A stretch of 64,000 bases of DNA from contig CAJINV010000002.1 in assembly GCA_905178155.1 (NCBI GenBank), positions 6,180,476-6,244,475 of the forward strand, given 5' to 3'. Of the stretch, positions 11,707 to 61,560 are shown piece by piece. The position numbers and the translations under genes are program-made. This DNA is from Amoebophrya sp. A120 (taxonomy: Eukaryota; Protista; Dinoflagellata). Every line of letters begins with the position of its first letter. The stretch's first letter is position 1. The notes below the pieces were generated by a model that saw only the letters and a list, made by a program, of their open reading frames with translations, had not been told where the DNA came from and made no database searches.

Positions 11707-14700
11707 TCACGTCTGATCCAGCACTCCCTCTCTACTAGACGGACTTGGCCCACCCGTTCTGCTACTGCTATACCGTATTCTCGGCGGCCCTATCGGGTCT
11801 TCCCCCTCCTCGCTCTCCTCCTCTTCGGTTGCAGCTTCGGCTTCCTCGTCAGATGAATTCGTTGCGTTTTGTCCCTCGTTGTCGCCCAAAAGCTCGTCGC
11901 TATCAACGTCTAAATCCTCGTCGTCGGAGGCAATCCCGTCCTCCGGAAGATCGTCGTCACTGCTTGTTCCGGCTGCGTACGACTGGCCGCCAGTTTTTGT
12001 CCCTCTATTTTTAAAGCTACGGTCATCTCCTTCCAACCGCTGCTGGTCGCTGTTGAAACGAAGGCTCGATGATGAGGAAGACGAGCCAGCAACCCCGACC
12101 GTACTACTCGTCGACGCCCAGGGCACGCCGCAAAGGGGAAGCTGCAAGTAATTGTTTCCTGATTTGTTTCTCGTCATCTCATCCTCTCCCGGCGGGCTGT
12201 CCGGATGAGCCTGTTCGTGCTGCCCTTCCTTCTGCAAAACAGGCGGGTTCTTCACGGCGGATTGGCGAACGCGCGGGTCGCCAAACTCGTTGAACTGATC
12301 GAGTCGTTTCAAAACTCGCACGCGCTTGTTGATCACGGATTTGCAGTAGTCGTGGCCCTCGCCAAACATCGTCTCCAAGATTTTCAGTGCCTTGTCGTAC
12401 TCGGTGATAGACTGTGGTAGCGGTTTTTCAAATAACATAAAACAGTAATCATACTCAAGATGTGTCCGACGCATGGAAAAAGTCGTTTTTCATCATGCAC
12501 AGCCCCATGTAACACAAGAACGTATCTTCAAACATAGTTCATCTCTCTACAACTGCTCCTGTAGCTATACCTCCCCCAGCCATCTCCTGGTCATATCCGG
12601 ATCGCCGTGAATTTCCGGGTTGTTTTTCGTGCAGCGAAACAACAGCTCCCCGAGCGTCTCCATAGTCCAGGCGTGCGCGCCGTTGATCCCCGAGGGGAAC
12701 GCGAACTGGTGGAAGTTGATCCGCAGCCGCGCGTAGTGGATCGCCCGGTCGTAGTCTTTCGACTGGTCGAAATAGTCCTGGGCGATGCCCCAAAACCTCT
12801 CCTGGAGCCAATGTTGGCTGAAAATGGAGTTCGCGCGCTCCAGCACCGTGGAGATCTTGGACTCGGACAGGGACTGAAATCATCGATTTGTTGTTTGTTG
12901 AGTGTAGTCTTGTTCACTGCATCCAAAATAAAAGCGCACCTGATGTAGAAAGTTCACAGAGAGGAACTACACGCTCGTTGTGCTACTGCTACAGTTCCAG
13001 CACTATACCTTTGCCGTCCCGTGACTTGTCCCGTAGGTCTTGTTGTTTTTCTCCACCAGCGCCGTCCAGTGGTCGTAGGTCTTCTGCATTTCCTTCTCAT
13101 ACGCCCGGAACTGCGGCCACTCCTGCTTGTACTTGAACATGTTGCACTTGTTGCAGCTGAACGGCTTGTCCGCGTTCGTGTCTTGGTCGACGTTCGGAAA
13201 AATCGTGCCGATTTTGCACCAAGGGCAGAGGAAACCGCGGGAGAAATCCTGGCCGGAGAGACACCTCGAAGGTTGAGGTCGAACACGAAATCTACAATTT
13301 GATGCATTCTTCTGACCAGAATTTGTTCAAGAGTGTCGTGCGTATCCTTCTTCATCATTGCAACTACCACTACGTGCCAAGAAAAACGGGCACAAAATAG
13401 AATCTCCCCCGTTACAACACATACCTCTCGCACGTGCACAGGAAGTGTTTCGACTCTTCCAAGCAGTGTCTTCTCGCCTGCGCTGACTCCATCAGGGCTT
13501 CTTCGGCCAAGTAGCTGCAGCAAATTTCGTCTCCCGCCTTCACCTTTCTCCGCGCCCGGAGCACGAACAAGTCGTCGTTTTTGTAGTGCCAGACCACGTT
13601 CGGGTGACAGGAGTGGGACATGAAGCTGGACATGAAGTAGGTGCTGTACCCCAGCGGGTTCTCGCTGTGCTCAAAGCAGTTCAAGATCCACACCTGGAGC
13701 AGCCGCTCGATCAGGAGACCGAGCTCTTGTTTCTGCTCCTCACTCTCGGCCTTGTCCGCCAAGTGGAGCTCGTCGATGAGCAGCATCACGTCGGAGGAGG
13801 CCTGGTTCACCTCACCTAGAAAGGTTGATGATGGCGGGAAAATTTGTATTGTGTTCCATGGTATGACTTTAACTTCACGATCAGTTTCTGATCCAAAATG
13901 TCTATGTTGTAGAAGCTTCATACTTATTCAAAACTAAAAATACGTCTCTCTGTCATCTATACCGTGATACAGCAGCAACAGTTTGTATTGCTGGTCGGCG
14001 GAGATTTGGCGCAAATATCGAAAAGCGCCGCTCTTATCAAGAGGAAAAATCCCCCCTCCCCATATCGAAAAGGTACGTCGCAGAAAATTTGCAATGCTGA
14101 TTTGCGACCACAAATGATCTCTGTCTTGCAAGAAGGCAATTCCACAGGCTCCGCCGCATTATGCAGGCGGTTTGTGATGCTGTTTGGCCTACAGCGCAGA
14201 CGTTTCTCATGCTAAGCGCCTAGGCCAAAACCTCTCTACTCAGGCTTGATGTGGGCCTGCAGTCCTCTTCAGGAAGACAAATCTGATATGTGTACTCAAA
14301 TCCAGCATCACAAATTTCGTTTTGGATATGGGGAGGGGAGGATTTTTCCTTTTGATAGCTCTTCCCCGCACTTTGCCGCCTCCGATTTGATTGCGGCTCT
14401 TCACTGTCCTCGTCCTCCATGGGGTCTTGTCCTGCGCCGCCGAGAAAAACCCCAGAATTCGCCAAGTCCTCAGCAGTCAACGAGTTCAACGCGCACCAGT
14501 ACCACAATGGCTCGTAGTCCAAGGGTTTATGCTCCTTGTAAAGCTCCTTCATCCGGATGTAATACGCGTTTTTGTCCAACCGTATCGGCTCGGCGACAAT
14601 GTGCAACGGTGGTTCCTCAAAGAGCAGGTCCCCCTCCTCATAGTCGCGGTTGGCCGTCAGAATCCGGCCCTTCTGATCATTATGGGAACAGAGGAAGCTC

Positions 14701-14996
14701 CCCCGGTGGTTCTGCCCGCAGTAGAGATTGATGTACTTACACCCGTGCGGATCGTTCGGCTGTATTGGGATCGGCGCCCGGTTGTTCGAGGATGATGTTT
14801 TCGGGCTCGAAGACTTGGAGTGGCCGCCATTTGATTTTACTTCGGAGACCTCCATGGCGTCGCTGTTTTGCTCTTCCCTGTCGCTACTATTCGACGCGGA
14901 CGAACTTGCGCTGGACTTGCTGTTGCTGAAAACTCTGCCGCCGTGGTTGTGCGTCGAGGGGTCGTCGAGGGTCATGGTGGTTGATGATGTTGCCAC
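11707..14996 (-). CDS. SMYD-like SET-domain lysine methyltransferase with TPR-like C-terminus; four GT-AG introns plus introner 14035-14357
   Basis: KGRILTANRDYEEGDLLFEEPP; SFMSHSCHPNV; ARRKVKAGDEICCSYL; post-SET FLCTCER|CL. Start uncertain (first in-frame ATG at 14975). Confidence 0.85.
14035..14357. mobile_element. Introner family B, 323 bp, TSD GCTCT
   Basis: TIR tatcaagaggaaaaatcccccctccccatatc / gatatggggaggggaggatttttccttttgata. Removal gives in-frame AGKS|GAFRYLRQ. Confidence 0.93.
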
Positions 14997-16374: not shown

Positions 16375-19300
16375 CTAATTGTTCATATCCTGCAGAAATT
16401 GTGCCACCTCGTCCTGTGTCGTTTGAAACGCTTTGAGCAGAAACGGGTGGGCTTGGAGTTCGAAGATGTCCAGCCGGTCCTTGGGGTCGAGCTGCAAGCA
16501 GTTTTCCACAAAGTCGCAAAGCTCAAAACTGTACTCGTACTGTTCTTTGTTTTGTCGTTTTTTCGCTTCTGATCGTTGTCCTGGATTTTTTCGTTGCACA
16601 AGATGCACACCTTTTTGATGTTCCTGTATCGGCGATACAACCATGTGTGACGAAGCTGATAGAATTCTGCTCTTACTGTCTTCTTCGCAGGAAAGGTCTG
16701 ATTTAGTGCTTTTCTCCGTGATTTCCTTGTCCTGACCGAAACTACTACTCCCAGTTTCATCGTTCTGCGAGGTCGACGAGTTATTTTCCACCGACTGTAT
16801 CCTGAGTAAAAACGTCCCCACACCAGAGTTGTAATGCAGATTTGCATAGACAGGAAGACTTGTAATGCGCATCCTCATGAGAGCCATTTCCAGTCGTGTT
16901 TTGGAATTTGTGATGCTGTGAACAGGATGAGCAGCTGGATTTGTGACGCGGCTGCACTTGCTAACCTGCACTACACTGCGGAGTGCAACTTGTCATGCGT
17001 GACTCACAAAGCTCCTAGGTTTGTGTTGCAAAATCCCCATCCTGACTCTGGTGTGGGTACGTTTTTACTCAGAATAGACTGCTTCGAATTGTTGCTAACA
17101 GCTCTGCAGCTCGCAGTAGGTGCTGCACTTCCTGCCCAAGCGGACAACTTCGACCCAGGGCGTGTTTGACAGGTCGATGTGGAGCAAGGCGTGGGCATCA
17201 CGGTGCTGCAGGTTTTGTCCAGATTCAACAAGTAGTTGTGCTTGTTGTTACCGTTGAACTGCGTCGTTGTGCAGCTTTCGGCTTGATTCACACTACTATT
17301 ATTGTCCACCCCGAGTTGTGAGGTTGTAGGAGTGGGATTTGGGAGATACAGAATCCCCCCTGCTGCATGGAAGTAGTTATTTTTCATGCAAAAATGCTCG
17401 GTCTTCACTGTTGAGCAGGCTGCAGGGGTAAAAGGCGTGTAGACACAAGTGCTCTGCTCGTTTTGCGAATTCATTTCTGTCGTTGTTCCCAGCATTTTTG
17501 TGCTTTCTTCCTCCACTGTTGGTGTGACACAAAACATCCCAGCTGAAGATCCTCGCCCACCAGCAGTGTTACAACTCATCCCGCCTATTGATGCACCACC
17601 CGCTATCCCTCCGACAAAACTGCTGTCTAGTTTCAACTTGTGCGGAAGCAAACAGCTAGCTTCGGAGCTGACCATGGAGATGCAGGAATTCAAACCGTTT
17701 AAATTTTCCTGGTTGTAAAAATCGTCCTGATCGAACAAAACTGGGGTGTCCACAGAGGAGCTCGAACTTCTCTCGATTTTTACGTTGTCCGCCGAAATTT
17801 GTTCCACCTCGGTAATTCCCTGCATGTTGAAGTTCGGCGTTTCGCAGAGTTGATTTTTTAGTATTTCCCTCTGCTGGTGTCCGCGGCACAGGGATTTTTG
17901 GGAAGGTTGTTGTTGAAAAGAATGGTCGTGCGTTTCTCGTCGCTCCTGCTGTTCTGCCTCTACTGCTCCCAAGCTCTTGCAACTGTTGCTGCTGCTGCTT
18001 CTGGAGATAGATGATGGCGGCCCTCTGTTTGATACTCTCTGGTTTGCGCTTTTCGTGCTTTCGGGTCGTGCAACATCTACTGCGAGTTTTTTGTCGAAAT
18101 CAATATTTTCAACATCTTCCTGCAACGAAAGCTCCGCAGACTGCTCAAGAACATCGGGCGTAAAGCTCTCAAGATGAAAGACTTCGTCGTTCACTAATCT
18201 CGGCGGCTGCAGTAGGTTCACGTAATCGAAGTTCACGCCCATCGCTCTGTTTCCCCCACCACCTCCCCCACCGCCGTTATGAGAGCTACACCTGCTACTG
18301 TTCCCATTGTAATTGTTTCCACCTCCGCCGCCAAACGTTTTCGGCAGTTCCCCCGCAGCCAGCTCGTAGACACAAATGCCCAGCGACCAGATGTCGCTTG
18401 GTTTCCCGTATCTCCTCCCGCCCCGCCCGAACCGCTCCGGGGCCATGCACACCTTCGTCCCGACAAAAGTGCGGCAGTGGCCGTCCGGGTTGTCGACGTT
18501 GAGCTTTTTTGACACCCCGAAATCGGTCAGTTTCACCTCCCCCCGACTGTTTACGAGGATATTTTCCAATTTTATATCGCGGTGCAGTATGTCGTTTAAG
18601 TGGAGTGTCTTCAGCGCTTCGGTCATCTGCAAGATTAAGAACGCCAGAATCGCTTCGGGGATCCGCTTTCTCCTCTTCTTCATATTCACCTTGTTTCTTT
18701 GCGAAGACGAGGATGATGAAGAAGATGAACTTGATAAAGAACCATAGTCGTTGTAGTTGTACATGTTCCTGCAGTAGTAGTCCGAGTGTCGGAACAGGTC
18801 CGCGATGCTGCCCAAATCCATGTACTCTAACACGATGTGCACCTGCTTCCTGTTTTATGCATTGCAAAAATGTCTGGGTCTGGAAGATCCTGAGACTTGT
18901 CATGCACGTTTTGCATGTGCCATGATGTCTGTAATGCATGCCGTAGCATCACAGACTTTTCGAGGGCTTCGCGATGCCTATTCCGCATGACAAATGCCTC
19001 CTCCGCGTAGCCAAAATTGCATTCCCTTTGCTGGTCATGCAGTACAGATTTTTTTGGAATCCAAATGCAGCGTCACAAGTTCGGACTCTTCCAGACCCAG
19101 ACATTTTTGCATTTGATATGTTTTTCGTTTCATCCACCAAATACGCGGCCAGCAGCTGGACCAGGAACGGGCTGTGCGCGTCGGACATGTGGAGATGTAA
19201 GTTCAAATCATTCACCAGCTGTTGTTGACTACTGTGATCCATGGCGTTGATGATCTTCACCGCCACGGGGGTCTTCGTCGGCCCGTGGATCGCCTTCATC

Positions 19301-22300
19301 ACCGACCCGCTCGCCCCGTGCCCGAGATGCGCGTTTCCGTTGGAGTTGTCATACTGAATATCCGAGGGGTGGATCACGTTCTTGTAGTCGCAATTCGGCT
19401 CGGACTCCGCGATCGTGTGGGAACAGGATTCCTCGTGCGAACTATCTTCGGCGGAGCCGGGAAGGATGTTGTTGAGACCACTTGTTCTCTGGTGCATTTC
19501 ATCTGCTTCCTCGTGAAGGAACCTCAAATCGCGGAATTCGGGCGAAGACCGGTGGTCGGTGGACAAAAGGAGCAGTTGTCCTGGGCTGCTGCTATCTGCG
19601 ACTTCATCTTCATCGTATTGTATTTGCTGTTGTTCAACATCTTCCGCGACCGCGAACTGTTGTAGATGTCTTTCTCCTTTCTTCCCTGCTGTGGATGATA
19701 AACATAAATTCGCTGTGTTGACACCTTGCCTTCTTGTCTCGACTCCGGCGTGCTCGGGTGAGATAGGCTGTCTTTCCTCTGGTCGTTCATCTCTGTGTTC
19801 CTCCACGATGTCATCTAACTCTACATTTTCAAACGGAAAGTCGATCGTGCTCTGCCTCGCAAATAAGTCCACGGTCGATTGTCTCTTCACTGGTCGCGGG
19901 TAAATGTCTATGTCGTCGCTCTGACAATTATCTTCATCATCTTCAATCTCGACTTCTATTTCGGGCGAAGCGTCGGGGGAAGGAGAGGATGCTTCCTCGA
20001 AGGCGTTTCTCCTCTTGTCCGCTCTTACTCGTTATCCAAGAAAAAAACGGTGTAAGTGTAAGTATTTTGCAGGAACAGCATTACAGATTTGTGTTGCATG
20101 ACAGAAAACTTGTCATGCGTAGCTAGTACGCTAAAACACGTAGTAAAATAGCCTCTGATGCATATCCGGCATGACAAGTGTAACTGTATTGCAACATCTG
20201 CAAGACAAAGTTACAGTTACACAGTTTTCTTCTTGCATACTCGTCGTCCCGATTGTACTACTTCGTCACCCCCAATTCTCCCGGTGTAGGCCGCAACTTC
20301 TACCTCTCGTCGCGAGGACGCCGATGATGTATTGTCCTGTTTACGACTCCCTGTGCAACTTGAAGCAACTACAGCAGGCTCAACATCGATTTTATGACCA
20401 TTCTCCCTCGTCACGGACGCACTGTTACTTCGTGACGAGCACCGCGATAAGCTCATCCTGCTGGAGCGGGCGGAGGAAGGTGGGAGGAGAAATGGTTGAT
20501 TTGTCCTGGATACCAAATGTAAAAATGTCTGGGTCTGGAAACTTGTGATGCTGGGTGGCATATCATGAGGCAGCCACAAGTGCTGGCTCAGCATGAGAAG
20601 TTTCTGAGCTTCTAGGTGTTGCCTATTCTGCATGACAAACTGCGTTTCTGCATGACAGAAAAGTGGCGCTCTTGGGTAACGTGCATGACAGACTTGAGAG
20701 TCATGCCAGACACGCATGACAAACATTGACTCTTCCAGACCCAGACACTTTTACATTTGATACTGGATCTGCGCTGTTGCGCTCCTGTATTTGGACGCTG
20801 CCCCTGCCCAGCACCGGCTGAACTAAAACCATTGGAACAATTCTTCCCTGCGCCGATATCCTCGTCGTCCTCTACCTCGTCGAAAATCCTGCTGCTCCGA
20901 CTGTTGTTCACGTCACAATAACTCGCTCTTGAGGAAGACACCACGGAAATCCGGCTCGCTGCGGACGAACTCCGCGCGGAGCTGCTTCGCCGGCTGTCGT
21001 AGGATATCAGCCGATTGTCCAGTTGATGTCTGTTCTCCTTTTTTGTAGTGGATTTCTTCGTCGAGCAGTTTGTTCTGGAAAAACTCAGCCGATCGCGGCT
21101 CCTTGTCGTGGAACTATTCCTCGACGGTGGCAAGAGGAGTTCTTCCCTGACTGGAGCCGGCGCATCTTCCAATTCGCAAGAAGAAGAGTAGCTGCTTGAT
21201 GTTCCACTACTACCAGAGCCCTCCTCCTCCTTGCTGCGGTCCGAACCCGAAGTACTAGATTCTTGCGGGACGGCGTCGAAGGAACCTCCCGCAATAGAGG
21301 CACCGTGTTGGTTCTGCACCGTATCTCGCGCAGACGAACTGGATCGCGTTAATGAATTCGGAACAATTATAGCAGGGACAACTACTCCATTCATGCCCCA
21401 ATTCGTCTTGCTGTTCCGCTCCGTTTTCCGTACCAGTGCTTCCGGCGGAGGCCCTACGTACATCGAACTCCGGCGTTGGAGTGTGGGTTTGTTCTTTCGG
21501 TGGGGATTTGTTCTAACCGGATTGCAGTAGGCCACGTCGTTCTTCATTGCACAACCAGACGGGCTTATTTGCTCGTCTACCGAGTGGAGGTAGTTGCTTG
21601 CGTTCTGGTTCTGGTTATGGTTCAAAACTATCCCCCGATTCGCAGATGATGATCCACAGCCGTGGTTGTTTCTACTCGTCGGACTGGCCGTGTTGCTGTG
21701 CAGCAGCAAGTTCCCGCCCGTCCCTGACTGATTCAAAAGCAGGGAATTTCTCCTCTGCAAAAACACCTGCTCCGAAAACCTCCGCTTCAGCTCCTTTTTC
21801 TTCTTTGGCGTGTGGAAATGCCGCACCGCTTTCTTCCACCGTAGGATGCCCTTAGTGCCTAATTTCAAGCCCGAATTGTTATCCAGAAGCTCGTCATTCG
21901 CGATTTCAACATTCGCGTTGGAGTTTTGTTTCTGCAGGTTTTTATTCTTGTGTGCGGACCTGTAGTTGGTGTGATCCACGTTCATGTTGCCGGTGTTTCC
22001 ATGATTTTCCGGCTGATTCCCACCTGCGCCTCCCGCAGTGTGAAAGTTGTCGCCGCCGATGCTGCAGCTGGTGCTGGATCTGCGGTACCGCGAGTCGTGG
22101 GAACAGCGGGAAGAGATAATGGTGTCCACAGTAAATTCCCCGTACACATAAAAATGCAAAAAAGAAAAATTGCCTTCAAGAACCTTGTGCAGCATGACAA
22201 GTGGCACTCTTCATACTTGGATGGCGAAATTCATCATGCGTTTTGTACGTGTACGGATGAAAATTTGTGTTGCATAGATTGTGTCTAGAGCGTAGTTCAT

Positions 22301-25280: not shown

Positions 25281-25560
25281 GCTTTCAGGCGACGTTTCTG
25301 GGGCTTCAGTATCTGTTTAGATCCAAAGAAGTACAGCTGTGTTATCAACGACGTAATGCTTCGCTTTATTTCACTACATCCACTTTTCACTGACTGGAGT
25401 GTTTGTCATTCTCTAACTTCGAAACCAAAAGCTCACCTGATCTTCCTGTTCCCCCTTTTTATTCTACAAAATTTCTACGCGACAATGGCACCGATAGACA
25501 TCAGAAAAACCGGCAAATCTACTAATACCGGAGCCCTAGCCTGCCCGCCACGCCTCGCTT

Positions 25561-43977: not shown

Positions 43978-44089
43978 TGGTTCAATATTAGTGAATAAGT
44001 ATCTACAGATTGTAAATAAAATAACAGAGACTAGTCGTCTTCTGTACCTAACAAATAAGTACCATCTTCAGCATTTGCCTTTCTTTGTC

Positions 44090-49400: not shown

Positions 49401-52400
49401 TGTGGGTTCTGCGCTCCGGCTGATGTTCCAAAATCCTCCTTTCGCTGGTCCCCTCCTGCTACCCCCGCCGCGTCACCCGAGTTGCCAATTTTGTTGCTCA
49501 CTCCCTTATTCGCCGAAGAACCTCCACCGTTGTTGTTCTCGTTCGCATTTTGCTGCTGGCTGCTGTGCCCGGTCAGCGACATCTTTTTCCCGGCCTCATC
49601 TCTGCTGTCCAGCATGAACTCCTATGGATTGTAAAAATGTCTGGGTCTGGAAGAATGGAAGGTCTGTCATGCTCTGCCAGCATGACGGCAAAGTCTGTCA
49701 TGCACGTTACCCAAGAGCCCTGTTTTTTGTCATGCATCGTATCGTATCGCTTTGACCTTTGACTCCTGTCAGGGTGGCGTTAGAACAGATTTAGCCTCTG
49801 CCAATACCGTGGCGTTAGAACAGATTTAGCCTCTGCCAATACCCCTAGGTGGACACCCGTTCCACGTCCTACAGGTACCACCCGACCGCATCCGCTGAAC
49901 CGTCATGCAGAAACGCAGTTTGTCATGCAGAATAGGCAACACCTCGAAGCTCAGAAATTTGTCATGCTGAGCCAGCACTTGTGGCCGCCTCATGATACGC
50001 CAATCAGCATCACAAGTTCCCAGACCCCGACATTTTTACATTTGATAACTCCAGATCCCCCACGATTTTCTCCGCCAGCCGCCACGACACCTCGGCGCCG
50101 TATTCTATGGAAAAACGTCCCCACTCCAGAGTCAAGATGGGGAATTGGCTAGACAAATCCACAAGCTTTGGCTGTTTTGCATGACAAATTTGGACTCGTA
50201 GTGAAGTACTGTTTGAGGTAGTTCACCAGCGTCACAGATCTAGTATATCATGCTGATTGTAGCATGACAAATTCCAAAACTCGACTAGAAAATGCGTCTT
50301 ATGGCGCTCCGCATGAGAAACATTTTCAGCATGCAGATTTGCATTACAACTATGGGGTGGGGACGTTTTTAAATACGATACGCCGATGGTTTTCTTCTCT
50401 TCAATCGAAATCCCGAATTCTGCCGTGGTGACCCAGCAGTTCAGGGGTAAAACCAAATTGAATACTTTCTCGGCCAAGTGCCGGCAGTCGATGAAGTCCA
50501 ACTCCTCCCGCCGATGGGTTAGGTCGTAGTAGATGTTGTCGTAAATCTCCGGGATCTTTGACGTGTCGAAAATGTACTTGGACTGATACGTTTTCACCTT
50601 CGAACTCGAGGGCACTAGGGGGGTCGTCGCGGACGAGCCTTGGTGCGGCAGGTGGTGGTCACCTCCAGGACCGCCAGACGTGACCACTATCCTGAGAAAA
50701 AACATTCCCAGCCCACAGTTGTAAAAATGCAAACCTGCATGCTAAAAATGTTTCTGATGCGGAGCCCCATGAGAAGCATTTTCTAGGCGCGTTTCGGGAT
50801 TTGCGATGCTCCAATCAGCTTGCTATCCTAGGTCTGTGATGCTGCTGAACTAGCTAAACAGGATTACACTACGAGGTCAAACGTGTCATGCGCAACAGCC
50901 AATGCTGGCTGATTTGTGTAGCAGGTTCCCTATCTTGACCATGGCGCGGGGACGTTTTCACTCAGGATAACCACGCCTGTCGCGCTGTGCGCGAGTTGCA
51001 CTTGTTTCGAGGTAGTCGACGCACGGGCTGTACGTATCAAATGCAAAAATGTCTGGGTCTTGAAGAGCCAAACTTGTGATGCTGCATTTGGATGCTAAAA
51101 AAACCTGCATTGCATGACCAGCAAGAGGATTAAAATTTGGCTACGCGGAGAGGGCATTTGTCATGCTGAATGCGCATAGATAAGCGCTCAAAAAATCTGT
51201 GATACTATGCCATACATCACAGACATCATGGACGATCATGGAAAATGTGCACGACAAAGTTGTGCTCTTCCAGACCCAGACATTTTTGCATTTAATAGCA
51301 CGATCACTCGGCTGAAAGGAGTTGGCGAAGGAAGTGGGGGCTGTGGTTGTCGTGTGGAGGTTTTGCTGGTTTGTTATTGTTTGCTGTTGTTTTAGTAGTC
51401 CACCTCCCGGTGGTGGTGCCATCATGCCCTGATAATTATTTCCTTGTTTGTTAATGCTTGAGGAAGAGCTGGAACTTGTAATTTGCTTCGTTGTAGCCAT
51501 TGAAGCTGCTCCACTACTAGAAGAACCGCCGGCCTTTTGTTCTACTGCCGAAGAGGGCGACTGTTGCACAGCCGTCCCCGAGTGGTCCGAGTGGTGCAGC
51601 GACGCAGCCGAGGAATGACTCCTAGGCGAAAGCAGCTTGTGGCCCTGATGTTTTTTCTTGTTCTGTGGTCCCGAAGTAGATGCTTGATCATGGTCGTCGC
51701 GTGGGCTGGTGCTCGACTGCGGACTCGCGGACTTCGTGGAGACTTTGGAAGTAGCACCGGAAGCAGCTGAGGAACTAGCCAAAGGTCTTCGCGACGATGT
51801 TGATGTTGTTCCATGATCAGCGGTTACCGGAGTGGCCAAAGTACTAGAACCTCGTGTTGATATCTGGTGCGAAGCAGTGGACGTCGATTCTGCTCCTGCG
51901 TAGTTGTCAGCAGGCGTGTGCATGCGACTGCTGTGGGCTGCAGAAGTTGATGCACCATCTCCGGTTCTTGTTGTAGAAGCACTACTACCTCCGCCCTTGT
52001 TCTTCGCACTCAGCCCAGCAGTAGAGGTCGAAACGTTATTCCCAGCTGCACCTGAAGAACTCGAGAAAGAAAGTTTCGCACCGAGATTCAAGTTTTTCAC
52101 CGCATTATTTCCGTTCCTCCCCATAATTCTATTCGTAGTTCCTGCTACTTTCGCGTCGCTGTTCGGACTCGAATCCACCCCTCGTGTGTCGTTCTCGTCG
52201 TCGGGCGAGTTGAAAGTGTAGTCACTTTCCCGGTGAAAAGAGCTCGTTTTTTCCGCGGGGCTCGACTTGTTCGTGGTCAGTTCGTTGCTGTCTGTAAAAA
52301 AATCGTCGCTGTCGATCGTCCTGCCGACGTTCGGACTGCTCCGGGCGTTCGTGCCCCGGCTTCGCAAGGGCCACGTGCGGTCGTTGGCTTCCAGTTCCTC

Positions 52401-55400
52401 CTTGTTTTCCATGTCGTCATCCTGCTGCGCCAGCTTGATCTCCCCTTGGAGTCTCTTCAAATCGGCCGGGTGCGGGCCCCGGCGGCCGAGCGCAAGTTCG
52501 ATGGTCCGGTCTCGCGGCTCGTCGTCATTTTCCCCGTCCTCAGGGTCGTCTACGTCTAGTACTTTGTCATCGAGAAAATTATTGTTGTTGTTCAAAGCAG
52601 TGGCTTTCGAACTGTTTTGTTCCTGTATCGGGTTCAAGTCCGATCTCGTTTGCAGCAGTGGCGGAACCAAACTTCCGTCCTCAGATCCGGAGTAGGTGAG
52701 TAACCCGCGAGATGAAATTTGTCCCACCGAACCACCGTCCTTGGAGGCTTTGGTCATGTCGAGGCCGCTGCCAGAGGAACTTACCCCTTTCATTACAGAT
52801 GCGTCGCTCCCTGTTGCGGAGGAGGTTGCGACGATTGACGTGTGGTCTACTCCAGCGCTTAATACTGCAGTGTTTAACATGTTATTGTCCAAATTATTGT
52901 AACCTGGTGCAGTCGTCCTAGTAGTGCCATTATTTCCCATCACACCATCGACAGGACCCACTGCACCGGAATTGCTTACAACTCCCGTGCTTAATTTCGT
53001 GCTCATAGTTGTGATGTGACCGCCTGCTCCATACTGCTCGTGCGAGCTCGTCCTCGTGTCCCGGACAAAGTTGGTCCCGCCGTCTAACGGAGTGGTCGCA
53101 GTTGTATTGTTCAACATCCCACCAGCCGCGACATTACTCGTCAACGTCGTTCCGCCGGTGGTGCTATCAACTGCAAAAACGTCTGGGTCTGGAAACTTGT
53201 AATGCTGCGTTGGGAACAGTGAATGCTCTGTAATGCACCACCAAGCATGAGAAATATCTGCGCTTCTTTGTGTTGCGTTTTTCGCATGACAAACTGCGTT
53301 TTTGCATGACAGGCAAAAGGGTCTCTTCTTGGACACGCATCACAAACTTTTTGGTCATGCCAGACAAGCATGACAAATCTCGCAATCTTCCAGACCCAGA
53401 CATTTTTGCATTTGATAGGTGCTGTGCTGGCCTCGGTTCACGTCCGACGGGGTTGCGGCGGTGGACTGAGCGGTGGATATGACCTGCTCAAACGTTACAA
53501 TCTCAAACGTTACAATAGAATCTGAATTTTATATTGCATAAAGAGCATGAGGAACGTGTAGAGAATTGAGCTTTTCGCAATACAAATTTCGCCGGATTTC
53601 AGGTAGGTTTGGGACTCCGAACCTTGTGATGCGCAATCCTATGGGAGGAGGCTAGATCATGCAGCTCTTGCATCACAGCTTTCCAGATTCTATTGTAACG
53701 TTTGAGATTGTAAAACCTGAGCGGGTTATAGTGGACTGTGCGGATTTTTTCGTCTCCGATTCCTTCACGAAGCCGAAGAGTAACTTTCGCCACCGGAACA
53801 GCAGCCTTTTCAAGATCATGTTCGATTTCCCCTTGTCGTCCAGCAGGCGGGGTAACTGCTGCGGATTCACCAAGTCCCGGTGCGGGCCGACTCCCCGCGG
53901 GGGCGGATGCTCGTTGTCGGAAGCCCCGCTGTCGTTGTCGCTGTCCTCGTTCACCTCGATGGAGCTGTGCACCCGGTCGATGAAAATCGTGATCTGCGAC
54001 ATCAGTTTTCGCAACAGCGCGTGCGGGGATTTGTACTGCTCCAGCATCACCCTCAACACGTGCGTTAAACCGGTCAACCGCGTTGCCGAGGGGACCATCC
54101 GCTCGATGAAGTCGTCGACGGAAGTGGTGAGCTCCTTCGTGTGCAACAGCGAGTCGATCTTCTTCTTCACCAGCTCCCGGCTGTGCTTCGGGATCGGCTC
54201 GTCGAGTAACTCCTGTGCCGTCCTGGATGTGGTCACCATGGAAACCAAGATCGGCGTCAAATCCCCCACGAGATCCAAAAACCCCTTGGTGAACGCGGCG
54301 GCGGTCACCTGGCACCGCCCCTCCAAGGAACTGTAGATTTTGAAGTTGTGGCGGAAGGTCGAGTGCAACGCGAGCAAGGACTCATTCGGCGGGTACAAAC
54401 ACATCCGCAATCGGCACCCCAGGTTTTCCGCCTGCTCCCGACCAACCTTCGTGATCTCGCCGCCCCACTTCGCAACCACCTGGATCTGCGTCACCCGGTT
54501 CGCGAGCCCGGGTTTGGAGCTGGGCGCGACGATGGGCTTCAATTGTACTTTCCTGTTCAGACCGGTGAATTTGTCGTGTAGGCACAAAATCTCCCGTAGC
54601 AACTCCATGTTGTGTCTTTCTCGGACCAACGTGTTCGCGTACGCGGAACTGGAGGTCGTGGAGCTCGATTTCTGCTGCTGTTGTTGTACCACCGCAACGG
54701 AAGTGGAGTTGTCTTCCTTGTCCGTCTGAGCTCGGTCTGCACCTTGATGAAAACCGCTTGATGTTCCGTATTGCAAGTTGATCGACTCGGTTAACTCCTC
54801 GATAATTCCTTCGACTTCAGCTAGCAACTTTTTCAAATCGTCCACCGACTTAATGGTGATTTCCTTTGTCTGCTCCTTCGGTAGCCAAGCTTTCTGCTGC
54901 ACGTGACTCCCGGACGAGGAAGCCGCCCCCGGGTCCTCCGGGGAGGAAGGATTCTTGTTCGTGGAGAGGGTGGACAAGTCGTTTTTGCTGGTGGAATTAA
55001 CATTCGCGTGGGCGCTCTGGCTGCTACTGCTTCCGGTCGCGCCAGAAATAACACCCACAGGAGCAGCTCCATTTGTGTGGCTGTTATTTTCCGCCCCGCT
55101 GTTGTTTCCGTTATTTATTTTCGCCCGCGCGGCGGCATTTTTGTCGTCCTCCTGTTCTTGCTTGTGCACTCGGAGAGTCCCGGAAATCAGGTTCGCGCCC
55201 GAGTTTGAGTTTTCCCGAGCGACCAAATCCGAGTCATCGTAACCCGTGTCGTTTTCTAACGATAACGAACCTTCTTCCTGCAGCTGCTGCGGAGATTTCC
55301 CGGAGCCTTTCCGCGGAACCAACTTTTCGACCGGAGATACAACGTTGTCGTTCGACGTGGTAATCTCGTCGGTGATCGTCAGCTGGCCGGGCTGTGATGT

Positions 55401-58400
55401 AAATCAAAATTTCACAAATCTAATTCCTAGATACTAGTGCGTACACTGCAGCTGCAGCTACACAGAAGTACAAAACGGTCAAGACTACAAAACAGAAAAA
55501 CCAAGTATAGTTACTCTCTTATACCCCAGCCGCCTTCTCTCCGAGTGCCAACCCGGCCTCCGCGGCAGAGGCTCGCACCGGGGTCCTGTCCACCGCGGAC
55601 GATGATGCCGTAGAGTCGTCCCTTCGCCCTGCCACAGTAGCGCTAGTACTACTGCTCGTCCCCGGCACGCCAGCTGCATTATTACTCCCCGCCGCGGCCC
55701 CGTCCTCACCCGCGGCGGCTGCCATTCTCGCGTTCCTCTTCCGCAAAATCATTTCCAAATTCCCCCCCATCCCGGCGTAAGCGTTCACCGTGCCATCTGG
55801 GTTTTCCGCGTTGGCCGCAATTGTTCCCGGTGGGGGTCCTTTGTACACGTACTGGAGAAAAATGGGGTGTTGCGTTCGGAACTTCAACTTCTCCTTCGGC
55901 TTCCGGTCTCCGTGCCGCATAATCACCAGCACCGATTTCAGCTCCCCCGTGTTCTCTTCTTCCTCCGTCGTGCCGAGAAAATTGGTCGGCTTCGCGCTCG
56001 ACATCCCATCCGCGAGCAAAGATGTGCTGTCACCGACCCCCGCTATAACGCGCTCAGCTGTTACAATCTACTCAAGCGTTACAATACAATATGGAGATCT
56101 GTGATGCAAGAGTGCATGATCTAGCCAACTCTCATAGGATTGCGCATGACAAGTTCCGGAGCTCCAAACCCGACTACAATCTGGCGAAATTTGTATTGCA
56201 GAGAGTGGAACGCTCTGCGAGTCTGTCATGCTCATCATGCAAGACAAATCTCAGACTCTACTGTAACGTTTGAGATTGTAACACCTGAGTGGGTTATACC
56301 CGCCGACGCGATATTCGGAAAGTACTCCGCGTCCGCGAACGTCTGTTGCACAATGTCCCGTGTCAACGCCGTCGCGGTTGACTGCGGCGCGGAGGCGGCG
56401 CGGTTCGGGTCGTGTTCCAAGTAGTTCAGGAGCGATAATCTTCGGTCCGCGTCCAACCCGCCGAAGACGCCGCTGGTCCGAACCGTTTGCTCTTTCAATT
56501 TGTCGTAGAAAAAACGCTATGGAATACAAAAGTATCGTACTCGTAGTAATTGCCATAAGGCATGACAAATCTTGTCCTTAAGGTAAAACAGCATGACAAA
56601 TTCCATTTGTCATGCTGAGCGACTTTGTAATGCAATTTATACTAGTACGATACTTTTGCAATGCATAAACGCTTCAGCTGCACCGCGGCGTCCGTGTAGT
56701 ACTTCTGGTTCGTCTTTCAAATGCAAATACGTCTGGGTCTGGAATAATTTCTAGGTTTGTCATGCATATTTTGCACGACCCATGATGCCTGTAGTGCATG
56801 ACTTAGCATCACAGATTTTTGGAAGGCTTCCTGATCCTGATGCCTATTCCGCATGACAAATCCCGTCTCCGCGTAGCACAATCTGGGCTCCTCTTGCTGG
56901 TCATGCAATGCAGATTTTTTTAGAATCCAAAAATAGCATGACACGTTTGGATCCTTCCAGACCCAGACATATTTGCAATGCATATCCCCTTCACGAAGCT
57001 CCACCCGTTCACGTCGCACACGACCGGGAAAAAGCCCTTCGTGCGCAGAATGTCGAACCCACACACCGCCTGACCGAACGCGTCCACGATGGTCTGCGCG
57101 ATCTGCTTCTCAATCTGGGACAGGATGATCGGGTAGCGGACCTCTTTCCCGTCCTTCGAGCGTTGCACCGCGCCGTCCACCGTCGGCGCCTTCCGCGCTT
57201 CCCCGTGACTGTAGTTGGGACCCAACGTGTAGACTTTGATGTCTGTGCCGCCCGTGGAGATGAAGGGTTCGTAGATGTAGGGCATGTTGTGCCGGACATA
57301 GTGGACGTCGGGATCGTATTCGGACGATTTGTTGTGCACTTTCCGGAACAACCTGTATAGGAGTTTGATTTATTGATCATGTCTTTATCCTGATTCGACA
57401 AGGATCGAGATACCCCGTCGAGCAGCACTGCAGCAGTTTCACGATTTCATTCGATGAGAGAAGATATGTGCATATCGAACCGGTCACCAGTTACTGCTAC
57501 CAATACCGTTTGATCCCCCCACCCGTGTTCATGGGGTAGTACACGTAGATATTGTGGTCGTCGCCGTCGATGGGCTTCTCGACAAACGGTTTGTACACCT
57601 TCTGCCCGTCCCACACAATGTAGTCCACCGTCTCCTGAAACCGGTTCGCGTCGTTGTGGTCGGTTACCAACACGTAATTCGGGGAAGGGATGGAAAACTC
57701 CCGCAATTTTTCGTAGACAAAGTGCCGATTTCTCAACAAACTCTGTTTGTTCAGCGCATTGATTTCTATCGGCTTCCGCAATTCCACGTACTGACAGGCT
57801 TTTTCCAAGGGGAAGCCGATGGAGTCAAACGAGATCAAACAGTCCACCACCGGCCACAGCTCGCATCAAGGTGAAAAATGCCCCCACCTCCGAACTTGGG
57901 AGCATTTGTATTGCAAACCTTTCCCAACGAAACACTCGCCCTCTTGCATCTATCAGCATCAGAGATTTCCAATCGTGAATCTGAATAGCAAAAATTTGTA
58001 TTGCAAAAGACCCCAGCAAGAGTGGCGCATGTCATGCAAGCGATGCGTTACACGCCTAGAATCTGCTGCATCAGAAAGATTCATACTGATACGCATAGGC
58101 AACATACTTCTTTCATGCATGACAAAAAGTTTGCATTTGGAAACTTCGCATCACAAGTTTTTGCGACTTTGGGCGTGGGGGCATTTTTCACAGTAATAGT
58201 TCGATCGGCTCGTTCAGGATGGTCTCCTCCGCGAAAATTTCCAGGCGGAAGAAGCTCTGCAACCGGCGCAAAATGTTCTGCATCGGTGTGGACGAGGCTT
58301 TGTTCGCCATGCAGCAGATTCCCAGCGACGGTAAAGATTGCTGGTCAACAACTTGGAGGTTGGTGTTGTTCGACGTCGTTGTGGTGTCACCCAAAGTATG

Positions 58401-58601
58401 ATCGCCGGTCAAGCTGGTGCTCCGGGTATTGAAAGCGCTAGTCGTGTCAAGATTGACCATTGACCCGTTACTGCCACCTCCGTTTGATGCAGTGGCCGTT
58501 GGGTTCAGAACTTGTGATGCATTCGTCGCATTGGTCGCGGAAGAGGAGCTCGCGGCGGACCGCGGCTCGGCCGAAATGTACGCGTTCGGGGGCGCGTCCA
58601 T
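46436..58601 (-). CDS. VIP1: PPIP5K/Vip1 inositol-pyrophosphate kinase-phosphatase, ~3020 aa; 10 introners plus GT-AG introns 55392-55524 and 57353-57506
   Basis: EPIE|[21 protein letters not shown]; [20 protein letters not shown]; GGGIKR|LFRK; GTDIKVYT; [10 protein letters not shown]; [10 protein letters not shown]; AKWGGE; SKIPEIYD. The spliced length is 9063 nt, which is 3021 codons. Confidence 0.95.
49623..50047. mobile_element. Introner family A2, 425 bp including a nested insertion, TSD ACTCC
   Basis: Family A TIRs. 425 - 165 - 8 = 252 bp, the length of the 20511 copy. Join GDLE|FMLDS. Confidence 0.95.
49737..49901 (-). mobile_element. 165-bp nested insertion with 8-bp TSD GTCATGCA; SINE/LINE-3'-end-like
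   Basis: Absent from sister copies. Has no TIR, a 35-bp tandem duplication, and a short (GATAC)n-type tail on the minus strand. Confidence 0.75.
50101..50380. mobile_element. Introner family C, 280 bp, TSD CGCCG
   Basis: Inverted relative to the 16798 and 50688 copies. Join KTIG|AEVSWRL. Confidence 0.92.
50688..50969. mobile_element. Introner family C, 282 bp, TSD ACCAC
   Basis: tatcctgagaaaaaac / gttttcactcaggata. Join TGVV|TSGG. Confidence 0.92.
51035..51297. mobile_element. Introner family A, 263 bp, flanks GTACG/GCACG
   Basis: Family A TIRs; in-frame join. Confidence 0.92.
53165..53417. mobile_element. Introner family A2, 253 bp, TSD GGTGC
   Basis: Family A TIRs. Join QHST|TGGTT. Confidence 0.95.
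53478..53730. mobile_element. Introner family D, 253 bp, TSD GTGGA
   Basis: TIR contains a repeated gttacaat; reverse-complement homolog of the 56044 copy; in-frame join. Confidence 0.93.
56044..56298. mobile_element. Introner family D, 255 bp, TSD CCCGC
   Basis: tataacgcgctcagctgttacaatc / gattgtaacacctgagtgggttata. Join ASAG|VGDST. Confidence 0.93.
56518..56667. mobile_element. Introner family G, 150 bp, TSD AACGC
   Basis: tatggaatacaaaagtatcgtact / agtacgatacttttgcaatgcata. Join QLKR|FFYDKL. Confidence 0.92.
56715..56984. mobile_element. Introner family A, 270 bp, flanks TCGTC/TCCCC
   Basis: Family A TIRs with the left end mutated to tttc. Join SFVKG|NQKYY restores the Vip1 kinase motif. 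Confidence 0.9.
57864..58198. mobile_element. Introner family F, 335 bp, flanks GCTCG/GTTCG
   Basis: catcaaggtgaaaaatgcccccac / gtgggggcatttttcacagtaata. Join EPIE|LWPVVD. Confidence 0.9.
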
Positions 58602-59761
58602 GGCTCGTCTCGTCGGGGGATCAGTTACAATAGGTTTGAACTATGCCATCGTGGTGGAAAGAGACTGGTTGTACATGGGTAGCACAAGTCGAGGAATTAT
58701 ACATGTTGGGGATGGGGAAGCCATGTTACTCTATTCGACGAGTTAGAAAAATTGTTTGGTAAGCCGGCGTAGTTTAACAACTACGTCATTAGATATGCGA
58801 AACAAACCCGAAATACTATACCTCCGGCAATAATCTCCCGATCTAGTACTTTTTCACAGACCTAAGAGGATATTACACCTGCCTTGTTCCAGCACTCGGA
58901 CCACCCCCTGTCGATTTGAGTAGACCAGAGCGAATTAGACTCGCAGCCGTCACAAGTCGCAAGAACAGCGAGAAGACCCAGAAGAAAAAGGACACAGTAA
59001 GAGTGAGATCACAAAAAAATCGACAGACAGGAAACAAATCACCTCCACGCACTCAAATAAACAGTTCTAGCTCTTTTAACGGCATCGCCTCGATCTCAAA
59101 AATCAGTCGTGTGCCAGTTGATCGCGTTCTCCTGCTCTCGCCACGAAGTATGCCAGCTGTAGTGGAGTAGATCTTCTCCAAGTCAATGAACTTTTAGCTT
59201 TTGCACGATGAAATTGAGAGTAGATAGTGTACGTGTACTAACAAGCGGATCCACATATAGGAAAAGAAATGCTGCCAAACGAAAAGTCACAACAGATCAT
59301 CTTCACACAGACACACACACGAAACTTTCACGATCGAACTGATTGACCACGACTTTTTGGCAAACACGACGTGCATCAGTTGCCCGTTTCTTCTCAGAGT
59401 CAGACCATGCACGCCAAAGCGAAAGCGAAGTCTCGCCGTGATGGTTGATTTAGATTTATTTGTTTTTACTATGATATGAACTCGCACAACTTCAAAACAG
59501 ACATCATAATCATTTTTGGGAGGACAAGAAATAAAAGGCTTTTTAGGCCTTACTACATCTTCATCGTCAAGAAGTTGTGGATCACGAAAAGATCCCTCCG
59601 TCGTGTCGCAACACAGGGCGCTCGTCAGTTCTTGTGCCAGAAAAAGCCATTTCTCAACGTGGTCACTGCGCCGAGCACGCGAACAATCTGTATCTGAATC
59701 ACAACACCTTTTCCAGAAGAAAGACCCCGCCAGAACTACTCTGCAGCAGCTTTCTTATCCT

Positions 59762-61560
59762 CTACTCGATGTCGAAGGCCGGTTTCCCTAGCTTCGAGGA
59801 GGCACTGGCCCCGCCGGTCAACCTCCCCGCCTCTGCCGCTTCGACGGATTTTTTCATCTTCTTCAATTTCGGCGAAGCGACGTGCTCGGGAGCCCCGCCG
59901 CCGCCGATGAAATCGCCGCCGACGCCGAAAATTCCCGGGGACAGATTTTCGTCGTCGTCCTCTTCGGAACCAGAATTGTCCAACCCCTTGTCCTATGCAT
60001 TGCAAATATGTCTGGGTCTGGAAGATGTCAAGCTGTTTTTGCATAACACAGAAGGTCTGGCATGGAAGCCCTAGCATCACAGATTTCGAGAAGGTTCTGC
60101 AATGCCTAATCCGCATGACAAATCCCCCACTATGGTGACAAGAAGTGGGCATCTTTTGCTGCCTATGCATGAGAGATTTGTGTGCGTTGTGAAATGCGCA
60201 TCACAACTTCTACTTCACATCCTTCGAGACCCAGACATATTTGCATTTGATATGTCCTCCTCCGCGAACTGGCCATCGAACCACTCAATGCAATCCCGAT
60301 TCTCGATCGGGTGCTCAAAGTCCACCCGGCGCAGCATGTCCGTCTCGAAATCGATGGCATCAAAAAGAAAAATCGCCCCTCCCCATATCGAAAACGAAAC
60401 CTGTGACGCAGTATTTGAGTACACAGATCGCATTTGTCTTGCTGGAGAGGACTGCAGACCCATGTCAAGCCTGAGTAGAGAGGCTTTGACTTAGGCGCTT
60501 AGCATGAAAAGGGTCCGTGATGTTGGCTCAACAGCATGACAGACAAACCGGCTCCATAATGGGACGGAAGCTGCTGCCCTTGTCTTCTTGCAACACAAAC
60601 GTGACTTGTGACCTCAAATCAGCAACACAAATTTTCGAAAACCTACCTCTTCATCAATATGGGGAGGGGGGATTTTTCCTTGCGATAGATGGTGGCCGGT
60701 CGCTTCATCTCCTCGTCCCAGGCCAGTTGGAGCTCATCATCCTTGAACAAATGCGTCAAGTACCAGCCGCACCGGTAAAACTGCTTTTTGTTGTACAGTG
60801 CGATCATCACGAGCGCGCCGTTGTCCAGTTTCGCGGTTTCCGGCACCAGCGTCATGTCCGGCGCAATGCCCTCCATCACAATCTTCCGCTTTCCGCACTT
60901 CGGGAACGGACCGCACTCGACCTCATCGAGTAACTGCTCCTGCTTCTGCAAGCAGGCGGAGGCGAGCAGATCCGCGATGGTCTTCTCCGTTTTGGAGAAA
61001 GGGTTTTTACTCGTCTTTTTACTCTCCGATTTGGACTTCTTCATCGACGCTTTAATATTCGCGGTAGATGTTGTTGAACTCGGCTCTTTACAAGTCGAGG
61101 TGGACTGCTGGTGCTCTGTAGTAGTGGCAGTAAAACTCGCGGCTTTTGACTGCATTTTCTTCATGGAAGTCGTACTGGAAGCTGCTGTCGTCGTTGTATC
61201 TTGTTTTTTCATCGCCGTGGTTTTTTTCGAGGTGTTTGAGGATTTGGAGCTTTTCGACCTTTTGCTGTTTTTGCTCGCGGAGGACTTGTTGTCGTCGAAG
61301 TTTTCGTCGTAATCTTCAGAATCCATGTCGTCCTCGTCCTCTCCCGAATCGTCCTGCGTGCCGTTCTCGCTGCAGGACTCGGCATCGAAAATGTCCTCCT
61401 GGACCTCCCAGGGCGGGATAAATTTCAACTGCAACTCCAGCGTTTTGGGAAGCGCCTCCATGACCTCGAACGTCACTTCGAGCTTCAGCGGCCCGGTCGC
61501 CGGCGCGTCCACCGCGGTCTCCGGGATCCAGTTCGCGCGCCGAAACTCGATGGCAGCCAT
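59762..61560 (-). CDS. ASF1: Divergent ASF1-like histone chaperone with a long loop insertion and two introners
   Basis: GPLKLEVTFEVMEALPKTLE...EQLLDEVECGP...APDMTLVP...LYNKKQFYRCGWYL...MLRRVDFEHP...IEW parallels ASF1 FEITFEC / DQVLDSVLVGP / EFIRVGYY / INW. Confidence 0.8.
59994..60252. mobile_element. Introner family A, 259 bp, TSD TGTCC
   Basis: Reverse-complement relative of the 137-388 copy. Join AEED|KGLDN. Confidence 0.95.
60358..60687. mobile_element. Introner family B, 330 bp, TSD GATGG
   Basis: Reverse-complement relative of the 14035 copy. Join PATI|DFETD. Confidence 0.93.

Follow-up and report, generated by a model that had tools for sequence, protein, structure and literature searches.

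The genes of Amoebophrya sp. A120 contain elements that act as introns in either orientation, with the same junction rule both ways, according to skips in assembled contigs, restoration of reading frames and alignment with homologues; a preliminary description of this DNA had claimed that the same element works in both directions. The window, that is to say the whole stretch analysed, comprises 64,000 nt of contig CAJINV010000002.1 (positions 6,180,476–6,244,475 of the forward strand; GCA_905178155.1) and contains 20 elements, every one inside minus-strand genes (Table 1). Their anatomy, an orientation of approximately 50:50, the loss of exactly the element plus 5 nt and a restored protein are direct observations. 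The elements are small non-coding transposon copies in exons that are probably cut from the pre-mRNA, in either orientation, at the foot of a stem predicted between their own ends. If this reading is right, it explains how these transposons can flood exons without cost of target or strand and hints that splicing may follow a non-standard route. The element class is already known; its indifference to direction appears to be unreported.

Anatomy and families of the elements

Each of the 20 elements has inverted repeats beginning with TAT, a non-coding interior and a 5-bp target duplication, and the direct repeats are exact in 16 of them. The element search returned 19 matches in the real window, against 0 and 1 in two shuffled windows. 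All 15 copies named in the preliminary description were found where it had placed them, with terminal inverted repeats (TIRs) and the 5-bp direct repeat; five others (20033, 37175, 42255, 56518 and 57864; elements are named by their first position) extend its list. Across 106 copies, A occupies repeat positions 11, 12 and 13 in 92, 95 and 100 copies, respectively. This A run is missing from the repeats of families D and G, and beyond the first three bases the repeat sequences diverge widely between families. The duplicates show no sequence preference and can be any 5 bases; the last duplicate base is G in 35, A in 28, C in 22 and T in 21 of the same 106 copies. These copies are introner elements already known from Amoebophrya, of the kind with A120-type ends (Farhat 2021).

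Multi-copy families were confirmed in the window and in a second assembly. Family A, previously taken as one family, divides into two subfamilies (Aa, 137 and 59994; Ab, 51035, 18856 and 56715), each of which nevertheless holds both orientations. The orientation between Aa and Ab is insecure (88 of 1988 edges were inconsistent, and one grouping put 137 with 18856). A search for long or autonomous copies gave two candidates of 1 kb, neither with a frame longer than 151 aa, and one of them consists of three ordinary elements; no autonomous partner with the same ends was found in the window or in loci of up to 6.4 kb, and Rfam gave no match in the window.

MITEs are non-autonomous TIR DNA transposons with a target-site duplication (TSD), no reading frame, random orientation and many copies. 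The Amoebophrya elements resemble them in having TIRs and a TSD and in being short, non-coding and multi-copy. Unlike MITEs, they are tolerated within exons, because they are removed.

Table 1. Elements, canonical introns and a host gene located in the window
Feature	Position	Strand	Remarks
Element, subfamily Aa	137..388		Direct repeat 132–136 / 389–393; opposite to 59994; frame restored on removal
Element, family B, in SET-domain gene	14035..14357		
Element, family C, in protein kinase gene	16798..17076		
Element, subfamily Ab, within kinase domain	18856..19118		
Element, family F	20033..20239		New
Element, family A2	20511..20762		
Element, family G	37175..37485		Repeat without A run; new
Canonical GT-AG intron	41908..42101	-	Branch-like motif CTAAT; shares its gene with element 42255
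Element, family J	42255..42447		Direct repeat with one mismatch; 198-nt skip in X1, X4
Canonical GT-AG intron	42501..42715	-	
PPIP5K/VIP1 inositol-pyrophosphate kinase gene	46436..58640	-	Ten elements inside; four families in both orientations
Element, family A2	49623..50047		172-nt internal insert; 430-nt skip in X1, X4
Element, family C	50101..50380		285-nt skip in X1
Element, family C, opposite to 50101	50688..50969		Removal inferred from X1 contig span and depth
Element, subfamily Ab	51035..51297		One direct-repeat mismatch; X1 contig piece starts at 51298
Element, family A2, opposite to 49623	53165..53417		X1 contig piece stops at 53159
Element, family D	53478..53730		
Element, family D, opposite to 53478	56044..56298		
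Element, family H, 150 nt	56518..56667		New
Element, subfamily Ab	56715..56984		Decayed 3′ end; two direct-repeat mismatches
Element, family I	57864..58198		New
Element, subfamily Aa, in ASF1-like gene	59994..60252		264-nt skip in X1, X4
Element, family B, opposite to 14035	60358..60687		335-nt skip in X1, X4

Equal use of the two orientations

The interiors of the window copies are asymmetric, and orientation is therefore meaningful. Alignment of these interiors, with the 45-nt ends trimmed off, bore out the claim that each multi-copy family occurs in both orientations. For the pairs proposed earlier, the scores in the same versus the opposite orientation were −3 versus 200 (137/59994), −8 versus 199 (18856/51035), 3 versus 184 (51035/56715), −86 versus 94 (20511/49623), 23 versus 254 (14035/60358), −23 versus 232 (50101/50688) and 10 versus 174 (53478/56044).

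Beyond the window, the sample consisted of at least 150 loci of one public assembly (contigs JACKZZ01), none of which overlaps any window gene, so that no empty site was seen. The 182 family-assigned copies of this second assembly stood in for a genome-wide tally: no family deviated from 50:50 (lowest p 0.39). Counter to an even split, the long-frame strand calls at family A2 loci divide 13 versus 2, though all strand calls give 17 versus 17. Once the element plus 5 nt was removed, 59 of 73 copies in one orientation and 51 of 68 in the other had an open frame of at least 120 nt to either side (Fisher p 0.42); the same test at +3, +4, +6 and +7 gave only 34–38. A DNA transposon is by default expected in random orientation; what calls for explanation is the absence of selection against either one. 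Full indifference to orientation implies that there is no signal inside the element and that the code is confined to its ends.

Exact removal in joined contigs

Removal was seen in the joints listed for contigs of runs X1 and X4, which were taken as RNA by guess, none of the listed runs being recorded as RNA; raw-read runs X7 and X8, which covered one repeat end only, were left out. Among the joints listed, at least 5 of the 13 elements in the covered stretch (42255, 49623, 50101, 59994 and 60358) are lost exactly, together with 5 nt, and no family shows both orientations. The contigs with element skips also skip two GT-AG introns. One X1 contig (depth 12.7) joins across 49616–50047 and 50095–50381, and a clean piece of the same contig (51298–53159) has the ends that exact removal of 51035 and 53165 would leave. 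Loss of 50688 is likewise consistent with the length of this contig and with the depth of bin 48804–49467 (18.5 observed, the sum of 14.2 and 4.3). Removal of the three opposite-orientation partners 50688, 51035 and 53165 is indirectly supported in this way.

Junction signals and their polarity

The elements were considered as canonical U2 introns, and this was rejected: a GT/GC-AG register is possible in 18 of 271 elements, and polar branch-point and pyrimidine signals are lacking. Any of the GT/GC/GA-AG or AT-AC registers is possible in 40 of the 271, and the other 231 have no canonical register. Branch-like CTRAY motifs number 19 in sense and 28 in antisense across 272 elements, pyrimidine runs show no polarity (43 versus 46 of 272), and tests of polar k-mers and skew were null, with no k-mer surviving correction. 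The last intron base is unconstrained.

The first base is a different matter. On the fetched second-assembly loci, where an idea taken from the window was tested, none of 204 5′ ends has lost the first base T, whereas the last base A is missing from 8 of 204 3′ ends (p 0.008). That the first T is spared at the 5′ end in the direction of the transcript argues for removal at the RNA level and not for DNA excision. The signal seems to be supplied symmetrically at both ends but read in transcript direction. As for the register, the direct-repeat mismatch of 51035 argues against a cut before position 4 of the duplicate, and the Gly conserved at 56715 against one before position 3. At the 5′ end, TATC is mildly preferred to TATG (55 versus 29, p 0.006 uncorrected, one of more than 100 contrasts). 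In 120 frame-called copies, mismatches between the duplicates fall 10 times on position 1 and 0 times on position 5 (p 0.002); a constraint on position 5 was not replicated in 104 model-called copies (5 versus 3) and is a lead only.

The terminal stem

Folding, which the preliminary description had put forward as a check, predicts an end-to-end stem of equal strength in the two orientations (−42.8 versus −43.0 kcal/mol; 272 elements), and the predicted end duplex is −18.9 kcal/mol or better in all 272. The repeats contain G-U and A-C mismatches in even numbers (194 versus 205, p 0.62), which gives no sign of selection for RNA pairing; the outer repeat positions 1–10 are poorly paired in several copies. 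In the lowest-energy fold of 50070–51000, the opposite family C copies 50101 and 50688 pair with each other (226–232 pairs) and have zero own-end pairs, and this fold is approximately 140–170 kcal/mol better than the local folds. These opposite neighbours are thus predicted to pair mutually, yet 50101 is cut at its own ends, so a simple equilibrium stem is insufficient. The symmetric removal signal suggested earlier, either a TIR stem or a DNA-level event, holds in part: both ends are offered and a stem is predicted, but a DNA-level event is not supported, the stem cannot be an equilibrium one, and the reading seems polar.

Proposed mechanism and alternatives

In the mechanism that we propose, the ends of an element would pair locally, probably during RNA synthesis. 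On the 5′ side, the RNA would be cut immediately ahead of the first U of the upstream repeat or one base ahead of it, and on the 3′ side equally many bases into the downstream duplicate; the upstream duplicate would be kept in the message and the interior left unread. A flipped element would present identical ends to the machinery, and orientation is likely irrelevant, the motif being the same at either end. As the candidate catalyst, we narrowly favour the resident U2-type spliceosome with altered 5′-site recognition, and a separate cut-and-join enzyme is a possible but slightly less favoured candidate.

Such an enzyme would be a spliceosome-independent endonuclease plus ligase guided by the element ends to the stem foot, as suspected for the nonconventional introns of euglenids. 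The scarcity of canonical registers, the free last intron base and the lack of a polar branch motif would all suit it, as would the release of similarly built euglenid introns as circles rather than lariats (PMC11282704). However, the GT-AG introns in the same genes place the spliceosome on the RNA, the repeat layout is common to 15% of canonical A120 introns (PMC7789003), and Fritillaria is described as having an adapted spliceosome for TIR introns (PMC11282704); on balance we regard removal by such an enzyme as doubtful. It is similarly doubtful, if conceivable, that a second, spliceosome-independent pathway reads only the stem foot, namely the first U together with an overhang of 5 bases that matches the end of the exon. 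Were this true, any insertion, of any direction, frame or target, would be silently repaired in the RNA.

Alternatively, proteins such as a tamed transposase or an RNA-binding factor could recognise the end motifs and bridge the nearest two ends, with pairing a by-product of the repeats. The even G-U count, the success of local ends over a far more stable inter-element duplex and the constrained first T are in keeping with bridging, which we nonetheless judge improbable, since the repeats have little in common between families past their first three bases, the A run is absent from families D and G, and all 272 elements keep the predicted end duplex.

DNA excision before expression, programmed or transcription-coupled, would work regardless of orientation and leave the target exactly restored. 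It is very unlikely, because published introns of this kind were defined by RNA reads against the genome (PMC7789003), the elements are kept in two assemblies, the joined forms occur in contigs also missing GT-AG introns, and the asymmetry of the ends (0 versus 8) tracks the transcript, whereas a double-strand event predicts symmetric ends.

A hairpin with direct repeats, the layout of these elements, is known to cause reverse-transcriptase jumps; the joined forms could be such jumps, with the cell bypassing the element at translation, and the 5-nt repeat always contains one whole in-frame codon. Against the jump, the joined contig of the low-copy element 42255 explains 28.8 of 30.3 (X1) and 17.7 of 18.9 (X4) depth units of its bin, contig depth being rough. 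Against the bypass, the in-frame codon encodes different amino acids in the two duplicates in 4 of the 9 elements listed, plus 56715, and we give this explanation scant credence. Least credible is that each orientation has internal canonical splice sites of its own, an outcome that the preliminary description had set against its claim: no such sites were found, the skips of exactly the element plus 5 nt contradict it for the five elements with listed joints, and most elements have neither a canonical register nor any polar internal motif.

Comparison with known introns

Amoebophrya introners were described as repeated non-canonical introns of approximately 240 nt in co-oriented genes, with 3–5 nt direct repeats and inverted repeats of TAT, seven variable bases and a run of three or more A (PMC7789003). 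The same source already proposed a hairpin joining the exons, left the removal route of tens of thousands of non-canonical introns an open question, and reported U2, U4 and U6 snRNAs (and U5 in A120) but no U1. The window elements share the inverted and direct repeats, the TAT/A-run layout, the families and, in likely-RNA contigs, the non-canonical borders. Several features go beyond the content of that source: the elements are oriented 50:50, their duplicate is fixed at 5 bp, restoration is exact, the cut lies no earlier than position 4, and the first T is constrained. The available text of PMC7789003 holds nothing on element orientation, and we found no report of direction-indifference for Amoebophrya.

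Two-way introners are known in other lineages, but with GT/GC/GA-AG sites. In Polarella glacialis and Aureococcus anophagefferens, TIR/TSD transposons make introns in either orientation, as the Amoebophrya elements do; the duplicate or repeat supplies their GT/GC/GA and AG sites, so that special targets are needed, and a bias to one orientation was noted in the simple two-way classes (10.1101/2020.10.14.339549). By contrast, the Amoebophrya elements use any 5 bases as target, have no canonical site and show no family bias.

The nonconventional introns of euglenids, whose mechanism is given as unknown, have non-canonical borders, an end-joining stem, direct repeats, a proposed MITE origin and five unpaired 3′ bases, with CAG/CTG at +4 to +6/−8 to −6 and a pyrimidine/purine border rule (PMC4770533; PMC11282704). 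The non-canonical borders, direct repeats, MITE-like origin and five unpaired 3′ bases are likenesses, as is the end-joining stem, which in the Amoebophrya elements is a prediction; these elements differ in their TAT/ATA ends and in lacking the CAG/CTG foot and the pyrimidine/purine borders. The word "orientation" occurs 0 times in PMC4770533. Fritillaria borealis has many TIR and TSD introns with non-canonical ends, reported as spliceosomal, and differs in its prevailing AG-AC/AG-AT ends and an exonic TAC (PMC11282704).

Host genes

Pfam matches on 9 of 16 minus-strand frames scanned, together with CT..AC skips, agree with the earlier assignment of all host genes to the minus strand. Minus-strand frames of 4812 and 7179 nt appear only once the elements are removed, the longest before being 3183 nt. 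The presence of family D in both orientations within one gene was likewise correct (53478 versus 56044), and the same holds in one gene for A, A2 and C. In the PPIP5K gene, the alignment with homologues runs unbroken through seven joined sites, which include elements of both orientations. Among the 120 matches listed, the best named protein match, which places the host to genus level, is from Amoebophrya sp. A25 (93%, versus at most 70% for the others).

Element orientation and host genes

Insertion in either orientation is well supported as a real property of a known class of elements. The window contains 20 elements of 150–425 nt, which start with TAT, finish with ATA or a one-base variant, have inverted repeats of 20–45 nt, and are bordered by a 5-bp direct repeat (the duplicate) that is exact in 16 of them. 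A self-comparison of the window combined with an unbiased repeat scan recovered all copies named in the preliminary description, with the same opposite pairs, and the interiors (45 nt removed per end) could be aligned in a single orientation only. For family A, both orientations occur within each of its two subfamilies (Aa and Ab), but the orientation of the subfamilies relative to each other is insecure. The elements at 18856 and 56715 are alike in inner orientation, but their outer 10 bases come in two variants located at swapped ends; these variants recur in different families, which suggests exchange between element ends. A short CATGACA/CATCACA-type motif, present on either strand within every family and rare outside the window elements, possibly represents transposase binding sites.

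All host genes lie on the minus strand, as had been described. Pfam matches were obtained in 9 of 16 scanned frames (SET, kinase, TSP1, SAP, histidine phosphatase, RimK, PPIP5K2_N, and ASF1), and removal of the element plus one duplicate (+5 removal) gave an open minus frame of at least 90 nt on each side for 18 of the 19 elements tested, the lone exception (42255) having a canonical intron 54 nt away. Only once elements are removed do frames of 4812 and 7179 nt appear. Within the PPIP5K/VIP1 gene, for which Amoebophrya sp. A25 supplied the best named relative among the matches listed (93% across one exon), family D does occur in two orientations, but so do Ab, A2, and C. One homologue (P0001) aligns without break over the joined sites 57864, 56715, 56518, and 56044, and two others (P0004 and P0007) over 50101 and 49623, with matches starting 90–110 nt after the 50688 site; sites 53478 to 50688 lie in unconserved sequence, where removal was judged from the reading frame alone. 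Elsewhere, short duplicated minus-strand coding stretches, 83–92% alike and without inverted ends, are small paralogous genes, and GC-rich islands (59–67%) differ from nearby genes.

Orientation tally in a second assembly

The proposed per-family tally was performed on 150 loci (406 kb) of one public assembly, fetched by a 20-base repeat motif among the matches listed. These loci hold 326 distinct elements, up to 94% identical to those of the window (289 under a stricter filter); shuffled copies of 40 loci gave 10 hits vs 159 in the real ones. The strand was called for 252 elements, 100 by a long frame and 152 by a 4-mer model that matches 93 of 99 frame calls, and the 6 conflicts and 31 uncalled elements were left out. 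Wherever a locus had several frame calls (29 loci), they agreed on a single strand. The 182 copies assignable to a window family divide into Ab 27/31, A2 17/17, H 10/12, C 6/10, Aa 8/8, G 7/4, B 4/6, F 4/4, I 2/1, D 2/1, and J 1/0, and no family deviates from even orientation when window copies are added (lowest p 0.39). As counter-evidence, A2 copies with a frame-called strand alone split 13 vs 2. Among copies with model-only strands, +5 removal opens the frame in 59/73 and 51/68 in the two orientations, and off-register controls do so in 34–38 copies; because of this high background, the test is moderate evidence.

Junctions in presumed RNA

The contigs of two runs (X1 and X4) are presumed to be RNA; the skipping of two GT-AG introns and, in X4, a depth of zero for two bins close to the gene start are consistent with this. 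Among the joints listed, at least 5 of the 13 elements in the covered stretch (42255, 49623, 50101, 59994, and 60358) show exact +5 skips, with no family represented in both orientations. The removal of three opposite-orientation partners is supported indirectly: (i) a mismatch-free contig piece (51298–53159) has the ends predicted if 51035 and 53165 are lost exactly; and (ii) loss of 50688 fits the length of the same contig and the depth of the adjoining bin (predicted 18.5, observed 18.5; 14.2 if retained).

The 49623 element holds a 172-nt insert that includes a perfect 35-nt tandem repeat and matches nothing in the 150 loci or in the rest of the window, and the enlarged element is still excised exactly. 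Raw reads of two runs with the same species label (X7 and X8) contain a family-A repeat end fused to foreign flanks and none of the window's genes, reflecting either a divergent strain sharing the ends or unspliced copies.

Probable removal mechanism

The most likely course, which we hold with good but not full confidence, is that a transposase (no partner was found in the window or the loci) would insert the element at random and leave the duplicate, and that the element would then be removed at the RNA level from the foot of an end-to-end stem, with the 5' cut placed at the first U or one base ahead of it, and the other at an equal distance into the downstream duplicate. As the catalyst, an adapted U1-less spliceosome is slightly preferred over a separate cut-and-join enzyme. 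DNA excision and artefact joints plus bypass both rank low. Internal canonical splice sites also rank low: 231 of 271 elements have no GT/GC/GA-AG or AT-AC register, and the interiors contain no polar k-mer, skew, branch-like, or pyrimidine motif. By contrast, the two canonical introns carry GT and AG, and one has CTAAT.

No sequence preference was found in the duplicate. With no target preference, no canonical register in most elements, and no polar interior motif, the information therefore sits at the element ends. The same motif is present at both ends, as expected of the symmetric signal proposed earlier, but the ends are treated unequally: TAT is intact at 20/20 5' ends in the window and the 3' ends are decayed in 4/20, and among 204 independent copies of confident orientation, loss of the first T at the 5' end occurred 0 times vs 8 times for the last A at the 3' end (p 0.008). 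Mismatches between the duplicates put the cut late, at position 4 or later for 51035 and at position 3 or later for 56715, whose upstream duplicate encodes the Gly of alveolate-type GNQKY. A position-5 mismatch deficit is present in one subset and absent from another.

Folding predicted end pairing of equal strength in both orientations (−42.8 vs −43.0 kcal/mol, 272 elements), with z of −7.9 and −5.5 for the D pair; repeat positions 11–20 are predicted to pair well in 19/20 window elements, and positions 1–10 variably. A plain stem model is weakened because G-U is not in excess over A-C mismatches on the transcribed strand and, in the 50101/50688 region, the fold of lowest energy is a 226–232 pair duplex between both elements. 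In the presumed-RNA contigs, the cuts at 50101 nonetheless fall at its own ends, and the adjoining 49-nt exon is retained. Pairing, if it is the signal, would have to be local and early, or protein-aided.

Comparison with published introners

The elements correspond to the introners of A120 type from Farhat et al. (PMC7789003), whose sections and supplement text, in the parts covered, draw the hairpin, report U1 missing, and use "orientation" of genes only. Partial texts on Polarella and Aureococcus describe introners in either orientation that use canonical-type sites, whereas the elements analysed here are mostly without a canonical register. For Gozashti 2022, the portion covered describes a method that takes opposite insertions into account; A120 families are listed in Gozashti 2025, and "orientation" is absent in 12/14 supplement files searched. 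In the largely open-access literature covered, including parts of PMC12005148, PMC12787238, and PMC11453091, no paper was found to report that Amoebophrya elements are indifferent to orientation. On present evidence this is not a new system; the absence of orientation bias and of a canonical site, the acceptance of any target, the polar first base, and the predicted local pairing are new in detail, and the indifference is useful for an open question.

Enlarged and compound elements

Locus L066 of the second assembly has a C element placed between two family-A elements; since the same 5-bp duplicate flanks each family-A element, the outer ends resemble one 1031-nt element, a natural test case for cross-joining. 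At four other loci, unrelated sequence in the interior enlarges elements to 457–972 nt, leaving the duplicate and the two ends intact.

Coordinates of features in the window and in loci of the second assembly
Feature	Coordinates	Strand	Content
PPIP5K/VIP1 gene	46436–58640	minus	ten elements
Elements with swapped outer variants	18856–19118; 56715–56984		
Insert of 49623	49728–49899		
Tandem repeat in insert	49774–49843		
X7/X8 read match	53384–53417		family-A repeat end
Paralogous stretches	819–1048; 4336–4568; 2536–2571	minus	
GC-rich islands	23400–25200; 28900–29800; 32400–33900		
L066 compound	2991–4021		
L074 enlarged element	2991–3962		
L047 enlarged element	571–1051		
L048 enlarged element	3305–3935		
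L025 enlarged element	3304–3760
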